A stretch of 64,000 nucleotides of DNA from Candidatus Poribacteria bacterium (GTDB lineage: Bacteria; Poribacteria; WGA-4E; UBA9662), in NCBI GenBank assembly GCA_036339735.1, contig JAYZAL010000087.1, positions 1 to 64,000 on the forward strand. The letters are read 5' to 3'. Numbering within the stretch: position 1 is the first letter of the stretch; every line of letters starts with the position of its first letter. This document shows, one piece after another, positions 18,410 through 27,196 of this stretch. The notes under the pieces are model-generated. The model was not told the DNA's origin. It ran no database searches and worked only from the letters and a program-made list of their open reading frames with translations. A program made the position numbers and the translations under genes.

Positions 18410-20368
18410 CTAGGCCAATAGGTTCTTACCCTCTTGCTTTTCATTATTAATTTCTTTCATCTCTCGGCTTTTTAGCCAAACCATCAAGATTGATATGTCA
18501 GCTGGCGTGACTCCGGGCACGCGTGATGCATGCCCGATGGAAACGGGTCGAACTTGAGACAACTTCTTTCGTGCTTCAGTTTTCAGACCATGGACTGCAT
18601 CAAAATTAAAATTGCTGGGAATAGGAAGTGTCTCCAGTCGTCTAAATTTTTCAATTTGTAGATCTTGTCTGGCTATATAGCCTGCATATTTAATCTGAAT
18701 TTCGACTTGCTCTCTAATCGCACAACCCAAATCCTGATCTAAGTTTATGGTGGAAGAGACCCCAATTTCGGTAGCTAAATTGCTAATTTCCTGGTAAGTG
18801 ATATGCGGACGTTTCAGTAGATCTGCTAATGTCGTAGCCGTCTTAATGTTAGGTAGCCCAACCTTTTCAAGTTTTTTTAACGTTTCTTCAGTAGGTTTAA
18901 TTTGTGTTTGAGAAAGTAATCTGAGTTCTGTCAATACAGCCTTCTTTTTTTTCACGAACCTTTTGTAATCACTTTCGCATACAGTTCCAATTTGGTAGCC
19001 TGTTTCGGTTAGTCTCCAGTCAGCATTATCTTCTCGTAATTGCAATCGATGTTCAGCCCGAGAAGTAAACATCCGGTAGGGCTCTCGGATATCTTTTGTG
19101 ACTAAATCATCAATTAACACACCAATATAAGCCGAAGCACGATCCAATACTAGCTGACTTTGGTTCTTCACTTTCAAAGAGGCGTTGATACCAGCCATCA
19201 GTCCTTGGGCCGCAGCCTCTTCGTACCCAGTTGTACCATTTAACTGCCCAGCAAAAAACAGGTTTCTAACTCTCTTGGTTTCTAAAGTTGGATAAAGTTG
19301 GGTAGCTGGCGCGAAATCGTATTCTACGGCATAGGCAAACCGCATAATTTCTGCTTTTTCCAGTCCTTGGATACTTCTCACCATTTCTACTTGAACATCT
19401 TCTGGTAGACTTGCTGAAATACCGTTGAGATAAATTTCTTGTGTATCTCTTCCTTCGGGTTCAACGAAAATCCTATGCTCATTCTTTTCCTCGAACCGAA
19501 CTACTTTATCTTCTATAGAGGGACAATAACGAGGTCCAATACCTTGAATACGTCCACTATACATCGCTGATCGCTCTAGATTATTTCGGATAATATTATG
19601 TGTTTTAGGGTTGGTGTATGTAACGTAGCAAGGTAATTGAGATTGGCTAATCAAGTGATTAGAGAAAGAAAATGGCTTCGGGACTTCATCACCAGGCTGT
19701 ACTTCCATTTTGCAAAAATCAACTGTTTGTGCATTAACACGGGGTGGTGTCCCTGTTTTCAATCGTCCTACTTCAAAACCAAGATCTAGAAAACTTTCTG
19801 ATAGCTTTTCAGCGGCAGATTCTCCGGCTCGACCTGCGCTATAGGATACATCACCAATATGAATGGTACCTTTTAGAAAGGTACCAGTGGTCAAAATAAC
19901 CGTTTGTGCCAAGTAAGCTGTTTGAGTATGTGATACAACACCTAAGCATTGGCCATTTTCGGTCAATAACTCTTCAACTAAACCTTCTTTCACATCTAGA
20001 CAATCTTGATTCTCAAGTACTTGCTTCATATAAAGCTGGTATGCCTTCTTATCAGCTTGAGCTCGACTAGAACGAACAGCTGGCCCTTTCTTCGTGTTTA
20101 ATTGTCGAAATTGAATGCCTGTCTCATCAATGGCTTTAGCCATTTCACCACCTAACGCATCAATTTCTTTGACCAAATGTCCCTTTGCTAAACCACCAAT
20201 AGCTGGGTTACACGACATTTTCCCAATCGTATCTAAGCTAATAGTCAACATAAGTGTCTGACACCCCATCCGAGCAGAAGCTAAAGCCGCTTCACAACCG
20301 GCATGCCCTGCCCCGACAACCAACACGTCATAATTTTTGTAATAGTAATTCATTTCTTTTTGACTCAC
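18410..20368 (-). CDS. mnmG: tRNA uridine-5-carboxymethylaminomethyl modification enzyme
   Basis: VVGAGHAGCEAA, MSCNPAIGG, RLKTGTPPR, GPRYCPSIEDK, AGQLNGTTGYEEAAAQG, EPYRMFTSRAE. Confidence 0.97.
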   Translation of the reverse strand: MSQKEMNYYYKNYDVLVVGAGHAGCEAALASARMGCQTLMLTISLDTIGKMSCNPAIGGLAKGHLVKEIDALGGEMAKAIDETGIQFRQLNTKKGPAVRSSRAQADKKAYQLYMKQVLENQDCLDVKEGLVEELLTENGQCLGVVSHTQTAYLAQTVILTTGTFLKGTIHIGDVSYSAGRAGESAAEKLSESFLDLGFEVGRLKTGTPPRVNAQTVDFCKMEVQPGDEVPKPFSFSNHLISQSQLPCYVTYTNPKTHNIIRNNLERSAMYSGRIQGIGPRYCPSIEDKVVRFEEKNEHRIFVEPEGRDTQEIYLNGISASLPEDVQVEMVRSIQGLEKAEIMRFAYAVEYDFAPATQLYPTLETKRVRNLFFAGQLNGTTGYEEAAAQGLMAGINASLKVKNQSQLVLDRASAYIGVLIDDLVTKDIREPYRMFTSRAEHRLQLREDNADWRLTETGYQIGTVCESDYKRFVKKKKAVLTELRLLSQTQIKPTEETLKKLEKVGLPNIKTATTLADLLKRPHITYQEISNLATEIGVSSTINLDQDLGCAIREQVEIQIKYAGYIARQDLQIEKFRRLETLPIPSNFNFDAVHGLKTEARKKLSQVRPVSIGHASRVPGVTPADISILMVWLKSREMKEINNEKQEGKNLLA

Positions 20369-20381
20369 TGGATAGAGATCA

Positions 20382-21086
20382 TCACCTCAGTTCTACTTTT
20401 GGGTCATAACCTTTATTGTAACTAGTTGAACGCTTAGGAATATAATGACAAATGAAGGATTTGCGAAATCTGTTCATAGAACGATTAGGTAGAGAGCCGT
20501 GAATCAACCTACCATGAAAAAATAGGGTATCGCCTTTTTCCATTTCAACCATTTTAGTCGAGTATTGAGGATTTGGTCTCACTGCTGTATGAGTAAATGA
20601 AAGTGCGGGGTCAGTTTCTTTCATTTCTAATACTGGCTCTAGATGCGAACCAGGACAGACCATCAACGCACCATTACCAGCATCAGTTTTTTCAAGGGCA
20701 ACCCAAGCAGCAACACAAGAATAAGGTTGTGTTTGCAAATAAAAATCGTCTTGGTGTAAGGCTTGACCAAGTGCCTGCGGTGGTTTCCAATAAATCATAG
20801 TTTGCAAGCCAACTGCTGGTTCACCCAGTAGAATTTCCAATTGATCGACAATTCTCGGATGCCTCAAAACGTGCAGAGATAGCGGGTCTACCCGGTGCGG
20901 GTGCATCATACGAGGGTAAACTTCTAGAGGGTCTTCGGCATCTGGTTTACTGTTGAAACATCCAACAATGCTTTCTTGTTGGTGGAGTTCATGAGCGCGT
21001 TCAACTATCTGATCACATTCATTTACTGATAACAAAGACTCGCAGACTACGAAACCATGAGCAAGGTATTGATTTTGTAAATTCAT
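20382..21086 (-). CDS. PhyH-family Fe(II)/2-oxoglutarate dioxygenase
   Basis: ALHQD, WVALE...NGALMVCPGSH, GDTLFFHGRLIHGSLPN..R. Confidence 0.88.
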   Translation of the reverse strand: MNLQNQYLAHGFVVCESLLSVNECDQIVERAHELHQQESIVGCFNSKPDAEDPLEVYPRMMHPHRVDPLSLHVLRHPRIVDQLEILLGEPAVGLQTMIYWKPPQALGQALHQDDFYLQTQPYSCVAAWVALEKTDAGNGALMVCPGSHLEPVLEMKETDPALSFTHTAVRPNPQYSTKMVEMEKGDTLFFHGRLIHGSLPNRSMNRFRKSFICHYIPKRSTSYNKGYDPKVELR

Positions 21087-21438
21087 ATTATTTCTTCTCG
21101 CTACCCCCCCAAGTATACCACATCTCTACAAGATTAATATGTTGCTACTTGTTGGTGGAACTTGAAAACAACAGGATTGTCTGTTATCTTCTGGGCAGTA
21201 ATTTCAATCCCTTCTGACATATATCTTAAAAAATTAATAACTTATCTCAAACCAAGATAAAAAGAGCAGTCATGAGAAACAAACCTGTCCTGTTTCCTAA
21301 TTTATAATATAAAGGAACAGGATTTGAGAAATACAGAAAGAGGAAGTCAAATAAAAAGATTACTCATAAAACTTAAACGCCAATTGATTGTTCAGTAATC
21401 ATAGCTTTTACTACTTTTGTGGCATAGGAGTTTTGATA

Positions 21439-22464
21439 ATGAAAGAAATATTAGGCCAAACGAACGTATTATCACTGCGTTGTGGCTCTGGGAGTACTAA
21501 AGGAATTGGTCAAGAAATTGGCAAATTTGCGGTAGTTACAATGGAGATTCCGTGGAACCTCACCAAGACAGTGATTGGAGGAACTCCTGAGCAAGTATTA
21601 TTTGTGGACTCTGTAGATCAGTTGGTTTTGGACCAAAAACTACTAAGTCTACCAGAATGCGATACTATAATCGGGATTGGAGGTGGTCTAGCCGTGGATG
21701 CGGCCAAATATTTTTGCTGGAAGCGGAATCTGAGATTAGTGACCATCCCTACAGTACTTAGTGTGAATGCATTTGTAACTCCAGCAACTGGAATTAGAAT
21801 TAACCGTGAAGTTAAGTATGTTGGTATAACAAGCCCTGATCCTCTAATTATAGATTACGATATTCTTCGTACTGCACCACAGAGTTTGAATATTGCTGGA
21901 ATTGGAGATTTACTTTCGATTCATACTGCTAGCTTTGATTGGGAATATGCTGAAAGTAAGGGGAAATCCGAATATGTATTTTCTGAATTGGCAATCAAAG
22001 AAGCTAAATCAATACTAATGGATATTTGTTCAATGGCTTCTGAAATAAGAGATGTTACAAACAAAAGCTTATTGGCAATCGTTGAAGGCTACATGAAATT
22101 GAACGCAATTTGTATACCTTTAGATCACTTTCGTGTAGAGGAGGGATCGGAACATTTTCTATTTTATGAATTGGAAGAACGATTAAGAAGGTCCTTCATT
22201 CACGGTCATATAATTGGCCTTGGCATATACCTAATGAGCCGGTTACAAGATAATCAGGCCGAGCATATTACCGAAATTCTAAATAGGACTAAGTTGGATT
22301 ATCATCCTAGGGATCTAGGGATTAAGCGACAAGATTTGGTTGATTCCTTAAAAAACCTGAAATCCTTTGTCCGAAATAAACCACAACTTTGGTTCACAAT
22401 TATAGATGGTTCAGAAATATCGGATGAGTGGATAGATCATGTCTTATCAGACCTACGTTTCTAA
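21439..22464 (+). CDS. Glycerol-1-phosphate dehydrogenase-like (EgsA/AraM; DHQS/Fe-ADH superfamily)
   Basis: GIGGGLAVDAAKY, IPTVLS, AGIGDLLS, GSEH...HG metal ligands; AGGAG before ATG 21439. Confidence 0.75.
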   Translation: MKEILGQTNVLSLRCGSGSTKGIGQEIGKFAVVTMEIPWNLTKTVIGGTPEQVLFVDSVDQLVLDQKLLSLPECDTIIGIGGGLAVDAAKYFCWKRNLRLVTIPTVLSVNAFVTPATGIRINREVKYVGITSPDPLIIDYDILRTAPQSLNIAGIGDLLSIHTASFDWEYAESKGKSEYVFSELAIKEAKSILMDICSMASEIRDVTNKSLLAIVEGYMKLNAICIPLDHFRVEEGSEHFLFYELEERLRRSFIHGHIIGLGIYLMSRLQDNQAEHITEILNRTKLDYHPRDLGIKRQDLVDSLKNLKSFVRNKPQLWFTIIDGSEISDEWIDHVLSDLRF

Positions 22465-22869
22465 TCATGGCTCAACTCATTGCTATTGTCTCTTAGATAC
22501 AAGATACTGAAGTTGTGACAATCACGAGGCAAGGAATCCAGTCAAATTTGAACTGATTCTAAGATAACCTTCTCTTAGAAACAAAGCTTTCTGGTTCCCT
22601 GATAAATGCATCATCTTTACTTAATATAAATCCGCTATATTTGTAATTCAGTTTGATTTTTATAGAGATTGATTTAATGGAGAAACTCCGTTCGAGAGCA
22701 AAATATCAGATACGGCCGTTTTTCTCAACTCAGATACAAGATTACAAATGAAATCTATATGTTCCGTTCAATTTTGATTATCTAAAGATGAATTTGCATA
22801 ACACATCCGTTTTGTATGTTCATAGAAAAACGCATTTAGCACAATACCTTTCACGAGGGGGTTAATGAA

Positions 22870-24198
22870 ATGAAGATTGCATTTAGGTTCTCGATTATTT
22901 ATCTTTGCCTATTTATCTCATTTATTTCTTATAGTCATGATCTACCTTGGCTAACAGCTCCCTACCTACAGAACGTGAAACCAAATGGAATCACTATCAT
23001 GTGGGAAATTAGAGAAAAAAAAGACATTTACATTAATTACAGTACCGATCAGGCTTTAAAGAAATCAAAGCAGGCTAGATCAACTAATTCCAAGCACGAT
23101 TCACACATATACAAGGTTGAGCTCATAAATTTGAAGCCGGGGACGACATACTATTACAGGTTGAGCCATGAGGATATGCATTCATATATAAGAACATTTC
23201 GAACAGCGCCTCTATCGCCTCAACCCTTTAGCTTTGGTGTTTGGTCTGATAGTCAAGGTCATAATCGAGGTGTATATAATATAGACATTCACGAACCAAC
23301 AAAAAGTATGATGAAGCACATGGCTGATAGCGGTGTGGATATTGCGTTGACTGCAGGAGACCTTGCGGAAAATGGAGGGAACTATCAGGATGTCCGAAAT
23401 TACTTTCTCGATCGTATAGCAAAATACCTTGGACAATCTGTTCCATTCTTCCCTGCCTGGGGAAATCATGAACCTAATCGGCAAGACATAATCAGAAAGT
23501 TTGCCGATACACCGGCAAAAAACCGTACTGGTATGGACCCGGGATGGGGCAGTTATTCCTTCGATTATGCTGGAGTTCATTTTATCTGTATAGATTTCAG
23601 TACAATGAAAGAGGATATAAAAACGTGGCTGGAGGATGATTTAAAATCCTCTTTATCAAACAATCCACGTTACACTTTTTTATTCATCCATATACCACCA
23701 TACTGTGAGCTCTGGATCGATGGAGATAAGTGGCTACGCTCACGTTTAGTGCCTTTATTAGAACAGTATGGAGTTGATGCTGTGTTCAGTGGACATACAC
23801 ATGAGTACGAACGTGGTTACAAGGAGCACGTCCACTACATCATAACTGGTGGTGGTAGTTGGTTAGATTGGGAAGAGCCGATTGTAAAAGACTGGGAACA
23901 CATGTTTGTTGGTGGAGCAAAAAACTTGGCGGAATTTCGCCACGGTCTCATTAACGAATATGTACGAGTAGATGTTGAAATGGATGAGTGGATCGGTTCT
24001 ATGCATGCATTTCAACCAAATGGAGACTACATAGGTGTACGTGATCGCTTTGGATCTATGCTGAAAGATGCTAATGGTGATGGATTATTAACGGGACCAG
24101 AACGTATTATGCCATCAAACTACTTGACGGGTATGCCTTCAGATGCTAGGAAAATTGGTGTTAACGATCCAACGAAAAAAAAGAAAAATGCAGAATAA
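22870..24198 (+). CDS. Secreted purple-acid-phosphatase-family metallophosphoesterase
   Basis: Signal peptide; PYLQ...LKPGTTYYY...FRTAP N-terminal domain; SDSQ, GDL, GNHE, GHTHEYER motifs. Confidence 0.88.
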   Translation: MKIAFRFSIIYLCLFISFISYSHDLPWLTAPYLQNVKPNGITIMWEIREKKDIYINYSTDQALKKSKQARSTNSKHDSHIYKVELINLKPGTTYYYRLSHEDMHSYIRTFRTAPLSPQPFSFGVWSDSQGHNRGVYNIDIHEPTKSMMKHMADSGVDIALTAGDLAENGGNYQDVRNYFLDRIAKYLGQSVPFFPAWGNHEPNRQDIIRKFADTPAKNRTGMDPGWGSYSFDYAGVHFICIDFSTMKEDIKTWLEDDLKSSLSNNPRYTFLFIHIPPYCELWIDGDKWLRSRLVPLLEQYGVDAVFSGHTHEYERGYKEHVHYIITGGGSWLDWEEPIVKDWEHMFVGGAKNLAEFRHGLINEYVRVDVEMDEWIGSMHAFQPNGDYIGVRDRFGSMLKDANGDGLLTGPERIMPSNYLTGMPSDARKIGVNDPTKKKKNAE

Positions 24199-24720: not shown

Positions 24721-24877
24721 CTTTCAAAGATTGTTTACGTATAGAAGCTCAAAACAGATCATTAATCAATCGAAATAGGACCGTAGAAAAGCGCTAACTG
24801 GATACTATGAGCCAGGCTTGAAGGGTGAACGGAGGTATGATATAATTCTCTCGCTTGAACTCGGTGTAAAAACAGCT

Positions 24878-26056
24878 ATGAAATCTTCCAGAGACCTAAT
24901 CGCTTCTGCAAAACAAGAGATACCCGAAGCTTCCGTTTCAGAAGTGAAACAGAAAATTGACGGTGGTGATGATTTTGTTTTGCTTGACATTCGTGACAAT
25001 GATGAATATCGAGCAGGCTATATTCCTTCAGCTGTCTACATAAGCCGTGGCATGTTAGAGCTAGAAATAGAGGATTACGTTCCTGATCGAAACCAAGAAA
25101 TTGTCTTGTATTGTGCCGGTGGAGTTCGTTCATTATTAGCGGCTCAAACGCTCAAATCATTGGGGTATACACGGTTAATCTCTATGTCTGGTGGCTTCAG
25201 AGACTGGCTTAGTAGTGGTAATGCAGTTGACAAGCCTGTTGCTATGACGACGGAGCAAATGGAACGTTATAGTAGACACTTCATGCTTCGTGAGATTGGT
25301 GAAGCTGGACAGGCCAAATTATTGGACTCGCGTGTGTTACTGATTGGGGCTGGTGGATTAGGTTCGCCAGCGGGGGTATATCTGGCCGCAGCTGGTGTGG
25401 GAACTTTGGGTATTGTTGATTCTGATACGGTAGACCTTAGTAATCTGCAACGCCAGATCCTGCACTATACCGCTGATGTCAGTAAACTGAAAGTTGATTC
25501 GGCTATTGAAACCATTCAGGCGATGAATCCGGATGTGAACGTAATTCGACATGCGTTTCGTTTGGATGAGTCTAATGTGATGGATATTTTCAATGATTAT
25601 GAAGTAATAGTTGATGGAACAGATAACTTTGCGACCCGATATTTAGTTAATGATGCAGCGGTTTTGGCCAAAAAACCAGTGGTTCACGGTAGTATTTTCC
25701 AATTCGAAGGGCAGCTAACAGTTTTTGACACTAACCAAGGACCTTGTTACCGTTGCTTATTTCCTTCACCTCCACCACCAGGCTTAGTACCTGGCTGAAA
25801 CGAAGCTGGTGTACTGGGCGTGCTCCCAGGAACGATTGGTGTTCTGATGGCAACAGAAGCAATGAAGCTACTACTAGACGGTGGAAATCCCTTAGTTGGC
25901 CGCCTCATGACTTACGACTCAATGTCGATGAAGTTTCAAGAATTCAAGGTAAGTCGTGACCAAGATTGTGTAATTTGCGGTACTACTCCACAGCTAACGC
26001 AACTTCTACCGGACTATGAGACTTACGCGGACACTGGCCAACTATCCATTCCTTGA
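24878..26056 (+). CDS. moeB: Rhodanese-MoeB/ThiF sulfur-carrier adenylyltransferase with in-frame TGA (probable selenocysteine) at the active-site Cys
   Basis: Rhodanese YCAGGVRS; RYSRH, GAGGLGSP, SNLQRQ, DGTDNF; CYRCLFPSPPPPGLVPG-[TGA 25796-25798]-NEAGVLGVLPG...DCVIC. ORFs 24818..25798 and 25820..26056 are one reading frame. Confidence 0.88.
25814..25829 (+). promoter_or_regulatory. Putative bacterial SECIS element
   Basis: CTGGG-CGTGCT-CCCAG hairpin; the apical loop starts 20 nt after the TGA and has G at loop position 2. Confidence 0.6.
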
Positions 26057-26083
26057 TCAAAAAACTGGGACTTAGAACCTAAG

Positions 26084-27196
26084 ATGACATGGGCCGAAGT
26101 CGATCTGACATTGGTTCGACAGAATGCCTTAGCTATTAAGTCATATGTCGATGATCGAAAGCTGATAGCTGTCATCAAGTCAGATGCTTACGGTCACGGA
26201 TTAGTTCCGGTAGCTCGAGCATTAAGGCCGGTTGCAGACATCTTAGCAGTCGCGACTGTTAACGAAGCAGTCGAGTTACGTAATAACCAGATTGAAGCCC
26301 CGATTATGATTTTGTACAGTAGCTTGCCACAGGATGTGTCAGCTATTATCGAACATGATCTGCAGCCGACTGTATCTGACCCTGAATTTTGCAAAAATTT
26401 ATTTCAATTGGCCGTTGAAAAGCGTCAGATCGTTCGTACCCATGTTAATATTGACACCGGTATGAACCGAGATGGTGTCTGGCATCAGAAAGCAACTTCT
26501 TTTATTGATTGGTTATCGTCTTTACCGCAGATTGAAGTAGCGAGTATCTTCACTCATTTTGCCACTACTGACGTTAACAAATCGTCCCGGATGCACAAAC
26601 AGCTGGACCGCTTTAAGATTGTGGTGTCTGAATTACGCCAACAGAATATTCTTCCTCCGACAGTACATGTGGCTAGTACCGCAGCACTATTATCGCCTTT
26701 TTCGACTGTTGAAACCGATTTCAATGCAGTTCGAGTTGGTCTTGGGCTTTATGGAGTTTTACCCGTAATGACGAAACAGATGCCATTTCCATTGTCCCCA
26801 GCTCTAACTTGGAAGGCCTCTGTTATTTCAGTTCGGAATGTTAAGGCTGGTGAATCAGTGAGCTACGGAAGTGATTACAAAGCTAATATCGATCAAAAGC
26901 TTGCTACATTAAGGGTTGGTTATGGAGATGGCTACCCAAGACAATTATCAAACAATGGACAGATTATGATCAAAAATAAACTTTATCCGATTGTTGGTCA
27001 GGTTTGTATGGACGTCACTATCTGTTCTTTGGATTCGTATAACACGGTTTCAGTAGGAGATACTGCTATTTTAATTGGTCAGGGGATGGAGACTAACTTG
27101 CCAGTTAATCAGCTTGCTAATCATGCAGGCACTATTTCCTATGAGATTTTGTCTCAGATTAACAAGCGAGTACCACGACTATATAACACCAGTTGA
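26084..27196 (+). CDS. alr: Alanine racemase
   Basis: AVIKSDAYGHG (PLP Lys), IDTGMNRDG, VRVGLGLYG, GYGDGYPR, VCMD, TISYEIL. Confidence 0.93.
   Translation: MTWAEVDLTLVRQNALAIKSYVDDRKLIAVIKSDAYGHGLVPVARALRPVADILAVATVNEAVELRNNQIEAPIMILYSSLPQDVSAIIEHDLQPTVSDPEFCKNLFQLAVEKRQIVRTHVNIDTGMNRDGVWHQKATSFIDWLSSLPQIEVASIFTHFATTDVNKSSRMHKQLDRFKIVVSELRQQNILPPTVHVASTAALLSPFSTVETDFNAVRVGLGLYGVLPVMTKQMPFPLSPALTWKASVISVRNVKAGESVSYGSDYKANIDQKLATLRVGYGDGYPRQLSNNGQIMIKNKLYPIVGQVCMDVTICSLDSYNTVSVGDTAILIGQGMETNLPVNQLANHAGTISYEILSQINKRVPRLYNTS

Follow-up and report, generated by a model that had tools for sequence, protein, structure and literature searches.

The DNA analysed here (the window) is a stretch of 64,000 nucleotides, positions 1-64,000 of contig JAYZAL010000087.1 in the assembly GCA_036339735.1 of a pelagic Candidatus Poribacteria bacterium, whose genome amounts to 4.32 Mb in 107 contigs and is 92% complete. 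It contains a gene coding for a rhodanese-MoeB/ThiF protein whose reading frame is interrupted by one internal TGA, and this UGA, located at codon 307, is very probably a genuine selenocysteine (Sec) codon within a single gene, as judged from conservation among relatives. The codon is not a private mutation but is conserved as UGA across the order, on a column occupied in homologues by the catalytic Cys of the crossover loop. With this protein, Poribacteria add a new member to a family of selenoproteins that was already catalogued in 2005 and 2008. The features of the gene are the following, SECIS standing for selenocysteine insertion sequence:

24878..26056 (+): whole gene of the predicted rhodanese-MoeB/ThiF selenoprotein, 392 codons followed by the stop TGA, all in one frame that contains just one TGA before its end
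24935..25213 (+): rhodanese domain, residues 20-112 (Pfam PF00581, E = 2.4e-19)
25268..25969 (+): ThiF/MoeB adenylation domain, residues 131-364 (Pfam PF00899, E = 2e-82)
25796..25798 (+): UGA codon 307, predicted to be read as Sec, on the column of the crossover-loop catalytic Cys; TGA in 39/39 orthologues, Cys in 15/15 homologues
25814..25829 (+): SECIS-like hairpin, 5-bp stem CUGGG/CCCAG and 6-nt loop CGUGCU, identified by comparative constraint
25967..25978 (+): second Zn-site CxxC, C364-V-I-C367 (CVIC), 3' of the UGA, kept in 36/39 orthologues
26054..26056 (+): true stop codon TGA, without a conserved hairpin after it; orthologues end with TAA, TAG or TGA

Reading frame and UGA column

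Under translation table 11, the gene yields two open reading frames (ORFs), 24818-25798 and 25820-26056, which the initial annotation, made from the sequence alone, had proposed to be one frame. This proposal holds, the TGA at 25796-25798 being the sole interruption, and in the translation of 24878-26056 codon 307 falls within ...PPPGLVPG-U-NEAGVLGVLPG.... The start codon ATG at 24878 agrees with the N-termini of homologues in the alignment. The rhodanese domain provides the catalytic Cys79 (codon TGT, 25112-25114) in the motif CAGGVRS, invariant in 39/39 orthologues, and the PF00899 match extends over profile positions 1-236 of 238, crossing the TGA uninterrupted. Within the ThiF domain, the nucleotide loop GAGGLGS corresponds to residues 157-163 and the first Zn CxxC to C290/C293; G157/G159/G160, D181, K205, D249, C290 and C293 are invariant in the same 39 orthologues. 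The second CxxC (CVIC), noticed at the outset downstream of the TGA, is indeed there as C364/C367; a product terminated at codon 307 would lack it. In three loci of one genus (L022, L023 and L024), W...G replaces this second CxxC, and the TGA and the hairpin are retained.

When Sec is read as Cys in the profile scan, the protein matches the NCBIfam model NF006444 ("molybdopterin-synthase adenylyltransferase MoeB") with 534.7 bits against a cut-off of 449, residues 5-383 lying on profile positions 4-382 of 387. The scores obtained with NF005902 (MoeZ; 393.6 against a cut-off of 647), TIGR02355 (MoeB; 218.5 against 376.55) and TIGR02356 (ThiF; 246.1 against 275.25) all remain below the respective cut-offs, and the rhodanese domain is N-terminal, not C-terminal as in MoeZ. 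The N-terminal location of the rhodanese domain (CAGGVRS), which had been highlighted as the reverse of MoeZ/Uba4/MOCS3, is real but is itself a known architecture, that of NF006444. As to the C-terminal ends of the 39 Poribacteria orthologues, 33 finish with ...AAD-COOH and two with ...AAG (L022-L056, from the other families), and the window protein's own family (L018-L021) has a different end, for example ...QLSIP.

At position 307, an invariant Cys is found in the alignment of 15/15 full-length homologues from Ktedonobacter, Nitrospinota and metagenome proteins, sharing 50-60% identity with the window protein, and the consensus of the Cys homologues put forward initially, PPPGLVPSCAEAGVLG, agrees with that of the alignment. 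Among solved structures, E. coli MoeB (1jw9) has its Cys in the same column and Chaetomium Uba4 (CtUba4; 6yub) its C202, the residue being a Lys in the structures 6yuc and 6z6s, which are those of the CtUba4 C202K mutant. These alignments, together with the 15 Cys homologues, support the early claim that the TGA stands at the active-site-loop Cys of MoeB/ThiF. According to the relevant publication, C202 is the crossover-loop Cys of CtUba4, forms a thioester with Urm1 that is then attacked by the rhodanese persulfide, and is important for resolving reactive intermediates under oxidative stress (PMC7527816).

A private nonsense mutation in a gene whose orthologues would all carry Cys was looked for and is not what the relatives display. 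Of 41 genomes of this order searched in all six frames, 39 contain a full-length match with exactly one TGA, distributed over four families and 10 genera with 59-95% identity, the remaining two containing a shorter paralogue only; all 39 full-length matches were fetched, and the TGA is in the same column in every one of them. At the scale of the phylum, a search of 176 genomes gave exactly one TGA in 150/150 of the best matches listed, one per genome. An E-value of 1.8e-144 or lower is reached by 153 of the 159 genomes of the order (this genome counted), the other six being 73-95% complete, while among the 17 genomes outside the order, seven have paralogue-level matches only and 10 have no match at 1e-90.

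The gene is also present in 20 sequencing runs that carry the label marine or seawater metagenome; they belong to 14 studies, and six of them are RNA libraries. A search for TGC or TGT in the reads, suggested as a check, was carried out on the contigs of three RNA libraries and one DNA run, and TGA is kept in independent runs, no other letter being found at 25796-25798 in the contigs of these four runs. The TGA is bridged unchanged by two RNA records (X3 record 12 and X14 record 5) and one DNA record (X7 record 14), X17 record 11 not being counted as bridging because it starts just 15 nt before the TGA.

Hairpin, selenocysteine machinery and rival explanations

The hairpin that follows the UGA is made of CTGGG (25814-25818), the loop CGTGCT (25819-25824) and CCCAG (25825-25829). 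It had been located 20 nt after the TGA; the hairpin exists, but this distance fits its loop, the stem beginning 15 nt after the TGA. Most relatives possess a sixth pair, C-G, at the positions matching 25813 and 25830. In the 39 orthologues, codons +6 to +10 are CTG 38/TTG 1, GGC 39, GTG 39, CTC 39 and CCA 26/CCG 13, whereas the flanking four-fold sites show 3-4 codons each and the same residues are encoded by 4-6 codons per position in 20 Cys paralogues of the same genomes. The RNAalifold consensus is a 6-bp stem pairing nt 18-23 with nt 30-35 (counted from the U of the UGA) at -9.3 kcal/mol, to be compared with -2.4 kcal/mol for the Cys paralogues. Among 95 distinct sequences (35 genome orthologues and 60 metagenome loci), 95.8% of the cells are paired, a proportion that falls to 68-70% if the partner is displaced by one. 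Besides, nine of these 95 sequences have the hairpin shifted by one register, with 6-7 bp and an outer pair at two wobble sites which is G-C in four of them and C-G in five. Comparison across relatives thus shows constraint on the hairpin codons, whereas the hairpin taken alone in the window is no better than chance.

In terms of known elements, the hairpin is similar to the bacterial SECIS of the fdhF type in its small size, its location in the coding sequence a short distance after the UGA, and an apical loop that contains G and U. In the E. coli fdhF SECIS, the G-U that is critical in the loop is found at +23/+24 from the U of the UGA; in the window hairpin, G-U is found at +25/+26. The putative SECIS differs from the fdhF type by its very short stem (5-6 bp) and its lack of a conserved lower stem, none being found beyond these 5-6 bp in the consensus fold of the orthologues.

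The search for the Sec machinery, suggested along with the original claim, was partly successful: selA, selB and selD are present, with profile scores of 510.5 bits for SelA, 362.3 bits for SelB and 359 bits for SelD, but the tRNA-Sec is not in the assembly. It is found with 72.8-78.1 bits in 5/5 relatives tested, including both same-genus genomes, in which it is located near a contig end (G001:C180:8474-8563 and G002:C73:14873-14962). The selD gene (G000:C70:27515-28441, +) is itself a selenoprotein gene, with an in-frame TGA in ...SCAG-U-ASKLDPG.... In the window, TGA terminates 12 of the 37 open frames of at least 200 codons, this gene included, and is an ordinary stop in this DNA.

Several observations nevertheless weigh against the Sec reading, which relies on evidence at the level of sequence and not on selenium incorporation at the level of the protein. 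With regard to the tRNA-Sec, the best Rfam score in the 92%-complete assembly is 45.2 for a cut-off of 47 and belongs to a tRNA-Ser, Aragorn detects 34 tRNAs in the whole genome, none of them for Sec, and blastn of the relatives' tRNA-Sec and flanks against the genome returns no tRNA match. With regard to the hairpin, the stem of the window is only 5 bp long because 25813 is an A, and the single-sequence fold of 55 nt has an energy of -12.2 kcal/mol with z = 0.00, 93 of 200 shuffles folding at least as well. In the main register, none of the pairs is changed on both sides among the 95 distinct sequences, and the shuffle control is uninformative because coding fixes one side of each pair. The hairpin is moreover composed of the codons of an invariant LGVLPG peptide, so that a part of it is automatic and only six wobble positions need fixing, and an Rfam scan of window positions 25600-26100 at the E-value threshold gives no match for it. 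The RNA-library contigs prove neither transcription nor, still less, translation, and the gene context points to no carrier partner, the synteny of the Sec gene being limited to its own family. The absence of the tRNA-Sec is, for its part, weak evidence, since in this 92%-complete assembly the tRNAs for Cys, Glu, Ile and Lys are missing as well, and the proximity of the tRNA-Sec to contig ends in the same-genus genomes may explain it; the missing tRNA is read as a probable assembly gap. An Rfam scan of the selA/selB/selD neighbourhoods at the E-value threshold gave no match either, hence no selC, and the only match of the flanks, on contig C49, is not syntenic at the tRNA.

Among the other explanations, the one that survives best, though improbable, is a selenium-dependent switch in which UGA would mainly act as a stop, a 306-residue protein made of the rhodanese domain and half of the ThiF domain being the usual form, the full-length protein being produced only when selenium is plentiful and the hairpin tuning the ratio between the two. 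Sec insertion is known to compete with release factor 2, and the public 306-aa calls show that the truncated frame is open. However, the 306-residue product has neither the second Zn CxxC nor the C-terminal third of the ThiF fold, so that it is unlikely to be a working E1, and the conservation of the 3' part at the protein level in 39/39 orthologues requires regular translation. Such a switch is in any case compatible with a genuine Sec codon, as a side effect.

A reading of the UGA as a standard amino acid, either by genome-wide reassignment (to Trp or Gly) or by near-cognate read-through involving Cys- or Trp-tRNA, is very improbable. Bacteria are known to read through UGA at a low level with near-cognate tRNAs, and the absence of tRNA-Sec from this assembly would be in line with it. 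Nevertheless, TGA ends 12 of the 37 long open frames of the window, among them this very gene, the orthologues contain exactly one TGA, and the presence of Cys in homologues at the column is the classic Sec/Cys pattern; selA, selB and a Sec-type selD are present, the tRNA-Sec is in both same-genus genomes, and a conserved hairpin stands at SECIS distance. Finally, a pseudogene or a genuinely split gene, in which the TGA would be a nonsense mutation or a sequencing error and the ORFs a dead remnant or two proteins, hardly deserves consideration: although table 11 gives two ORFs, the public gene calls are 306-aa products and the tRNA-Sec was not found in this assembly, the TGA is kept in 39/39 orthologues down to 59% identity and in the 150/150 matches listed across the order, the downstream part is in frame and conserved (second CxxC in 36/39), the ThiF profile crosses the TGA, contigs of independent runs contain the TGA, and the 3' ORF would need to begin at a GTG inside the conserved hairpin.

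Known relatives and distribution of Sec and Cys

The genuine Sec codon favoured here brings the protein close to a family that is not new. As stated in the corresponding papers, a "molybdopterin biosynthesis MoeB protein" was described in 2005 as a new selenoprotein family on the basis of 11 Sargasso Sea sequences, with widespread Cys homologues and SECIS-like stem-loops (Zhang, Fomenko & Gladyshev, PMC1088965), 19 GOS sequences of MoeB selenoproteins were listed under pfam05237 in 2008 (PMC2398784), and Sec-MoeB is also tabulated in PMC1976440 and in reviews from 2022 and 2026 (PMC9312934, PMC13188914). The mention, in the initial annotation, of Sec-MoeB candidates from metagenomic surveys was therefore right (PMC1088965, PMC2398784). 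The window protein resembles the 2005/2008 family, as far as the latter is described in the accessible text, in being a ThiF/MoeB enzyme with one in-frame UGA, Cys homologues, a stem-loop and a marine origin, and the 2008 listing under pfam05237 (MoeZ/MoeB region) fits the Sec site found here; this match is one by description, the available text of the papers giving no Sec position, motif or domain order. With respect to the features of the 2005 family, the protein is a ThiF/MoeB protein, its UGA is on the Cys column and conserved as UGA, and the SECIS-like stem-loop downstream of the UGA is represented by the conserved hairpin with its wobble sites frozen in comparison with the paralogue control.

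Poribacteria are not named in the accessible text on the Sec-MoeB family, including the 2026 review, and nothing on this protein came up among the papers listed in a literature search on Poribacteria and selenocysteine. In the full-text literature search, no biochemical study of the Sec-MoeB family was found, the reviews merely listing it in their accessible parts. The prediction that annotation pipelines would miscall the gene is borne out, as the name MoeB is given in the public gene calls of Poribacteria to orthologues of 306 aa. In terms of annotation, a gene found in 153 of the order's 159 genomes that were searched is thus publicly recorded as a truncated MoeB of 306 residues, and metabolic reconstructions of sponge and seawater Poribacteria consequently miss an intact sulfur-carrier-activating enzyme and one of the selenoproteins of these bacteria.

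Among Cys-containing proteins, the closest in organization are the Cys forms of NF006444 (PRK08762) from Ktedonobacter, Nitrospinota and others, which match over the full length with the same domain order and share 57-60% identity with the window protein. They carry Cys at column 307, and most of them have an extra Cys in a C-terminal ...FCG (the nearly invariant C384), which the window protein lacks. Like Uba4, MOCS3 and MoeZ, the window protein combines an adenylation domain, a crossover-loop residue on the column of CtUba4 C202 and a rhodanese domain with a catalytic Cys, whereas in these three proteins the rhodanese domain is C-terminal and the loop residue is a Cys, in contrast with the N-terminal rhodanese domain and the predicted Sec observed here. 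We infer that the enzyme may work in the manner of the Uba4/MOCS3/MoeZ type, without being a member of it. It also shares with E. coli MoeB and ThiF (1jw9, 1zud) the ThiF fold, both Zn CxxC pairs and, with Sec in place of Cys, the same loop column, but these two proteins are devoid of a rhodanese domain. In E. coli, the loop Cys of MoeB is dispensable, and that of ThiF forms an acyl-disulfide.

Relatives were further collected from metagenomes by a pattern scan in which the amino-acid motif was forced and the wobble positions were left free. At least 120 loci were obtained, of which 80 were fetched; all 80 have an in-frame TGA in the motif, and 69 contain the 18-nt hairpin core of Poribacteria. 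According to Pfam, 30 of the translations comprise 18 with the order rhodanese-ThiF, seven with ThiF-rhodanese (the MoeZ order) and five with ThiF only, the latter being explained by truncation or a further stop. A quick tree was built from 99 ThiF cores and rooted on eight Cys paralogues of Poribacteria, near-duplicates with more than 93% identity, one Cys row without the motif and the 306-aa truncated gene calls being left out. In this tree, the Poribacteria Sec genes are located in one starred clade (18 rows) and most soil sequences in another (22 rows), and at least four Sec/Cys changes are required, on a sampling that is biased, as Sec rows were chosen by pattern and Cys rows by similarity to the query.

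Within the tree, L162 (Sec) and P0007 (Cys) have nearly identical ThiF cores, with end branches of about 0.006, and L162 has a different hairpin loop, AGUUUUG; this pair looks like a recent Sec/Cys switch. Another locus (L108:520-1446, +, and 130 codons upstream), known from a single contig, contains one more in-frame TGA, exactly on the catalytic Cys of its rhodanese domain (...VLY-U-GGGSRS...), with a stable stem-loop of -23.1 kcal/mol over 63 nt behind it. As the crossover-loop TGA is present as well, this locus is a candidate double-Sec rhodanese-MoeB. Since Sec occupies the residue that forms the thioester in Uba4, a comparison of Sec and Cys would directly test the role of the loop residue in bacterial E1-like enzymes, natural material for it being available in the clades of Poribacteria and of soil sequences and in the pair L162/P0007.

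In the soil clade, the Sec rhodanese-MoeB proteins show an Ala/Pro-rich C-terminal tail ending with [KR][AS]GG-COOH in 27 of the 75 loci whose 3' end is complete, among which L099, L103, L110, L113, L114, L116 and L117. Variant ends such as KAGS, RAGA and KAGGC also occur in this clade, and the window protein has no diglycine end. This diglycine end resembles those of the carriers that an E1 activates. Its interpretation as an artefact of a ribosome-binding site was rejected, the codons being mostly GGC GGC with no start codon after them. In one soil relative (L141:619-1515 and upstream), the codon of a conserved Trp, where the rhodanese domain ends, is replaced by TAG; the locus is probably a broken copy or an assembly error.

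Possible role of Sec307 and genomic surroundings

The domains and the aligned residues support a role of the protein as a putative E1-like sulfur-carrier adenylyltransferase/sulfurtransferase. In the mechanism that can be proposed, the hairpin, with its loop beginning 20 nt behind the UGA, would be recognised by SelB loaded with Sec-tRNA(Sec), which would insert Sec. By homology with Uba4, MOCS3 and MoeZ, the ThiF domain would then adenylate the C-terminal glycine of a carrier of the ThiS/MoaD/CysO type. Sec307 might attack the acyl-adenylate to form an acyl-selenoester, or resolve the acyl-disulfide formed with the persulfide of rhodanese Cys79, and the carrier would be released as a thiocarboxylate for cofactor or cysteine synthesis. 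Selenium at position 307 would offer a better nucleophile and leaving group, as well as an easier recovery after oxidation. The chances for and against such a specific selenoester or resolving role of Sec307 seem evenly balanced, and no support for a role as selenium carrier came out of this analysis.

A further and rather doubtful proposal is that Sec307 forms an acyl-selenoester with the C-terminus of a ubiquitin-like carrier, equivalent in selenium chemistry to the thioester of Uba4 C202, or else a selenenyl-sulfide with Cys79, which would make it the first E1-type enzyme working through selenium. If this were true, Sec would perhaps have been selected because it lets the thiocarboxylation of carriers continue, and be repaired, in oxic seawater and in sponge tissue. 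Switches from Cys to Sec at this site would also be unusually easy, given that the SECIS would be pre-encoded by the invariant LGVLPG, and this ease would explain the four or more Sec/Cys changes of the tree, the near-identical Sec/Cys pair and the double-Sec variant.

The genome encodes four ThiS-family carriers which could in principle be substrates of such an enzyme:

CysO-like carrier ending with GG plus Ser, beside a JAMM protein, an APS/PAPS reductase and a cysteine synthase
MoaD-MoaE fusion, the second ThiS-family carrier of the genome
ThiS, with ThiG and ThiO
fourth ThiS-family carrier, beside UbiD and a molybdenum hydroxylase

The neighbours of the Sec gene in the window are a metallophosphatase, an alanine racemase, MnmG/GidB and others. 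The alanine racemase and a few others are kept in L077-L079 only, and nothing is common with L080-L085; as there are no conserved neighbours beyond the own family, the carrier partner cannot be assigned. The CysO-like carrier was considered as the partner, an assignment that was rejected because either E1, the Sec protein or a plain Cys MoeB, could serve it. This carrier belongs to a cluster on one strand (G000:C47 ~20350-23720; L219:6349-9717) comprising a cysteine synthase, an APS/PAPS reductase, a 92-aa ThiS/SAMP-like carrier, a JAMM protein and pyrF, which is a protein-thiocarboxylate cysteine module of the CysO/Mec type. The second MoeB paralogue of the genome, with a plain Cys, is encoded elsewhere (G000:C36 ~138640-142670; L218:3641-7666), two genes downstream of an 828-aa sulfite/nitrite reductase of the NirA type with a C-terminal YedF/TusA-like domain, and a glutaredoxin-thioredoxin reductase fusion is found close to it.

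Upstream of the Sec gene, one more feature was read from the sequence:

24838..24846 (+): promoter-like motif TGATATAAT of the extended -10 type, located 32 nt before the start codon

In three studies, the RNA-library contigs have their first nucleotide at 24864, 24875 and 24880, respectively, while the DNA contig extends further upstream. These starts, between 24864 and 24880, weakly suggest a short 5' leader, with a 5' end that follows TGATATAAT and immediately precedes the ATG.

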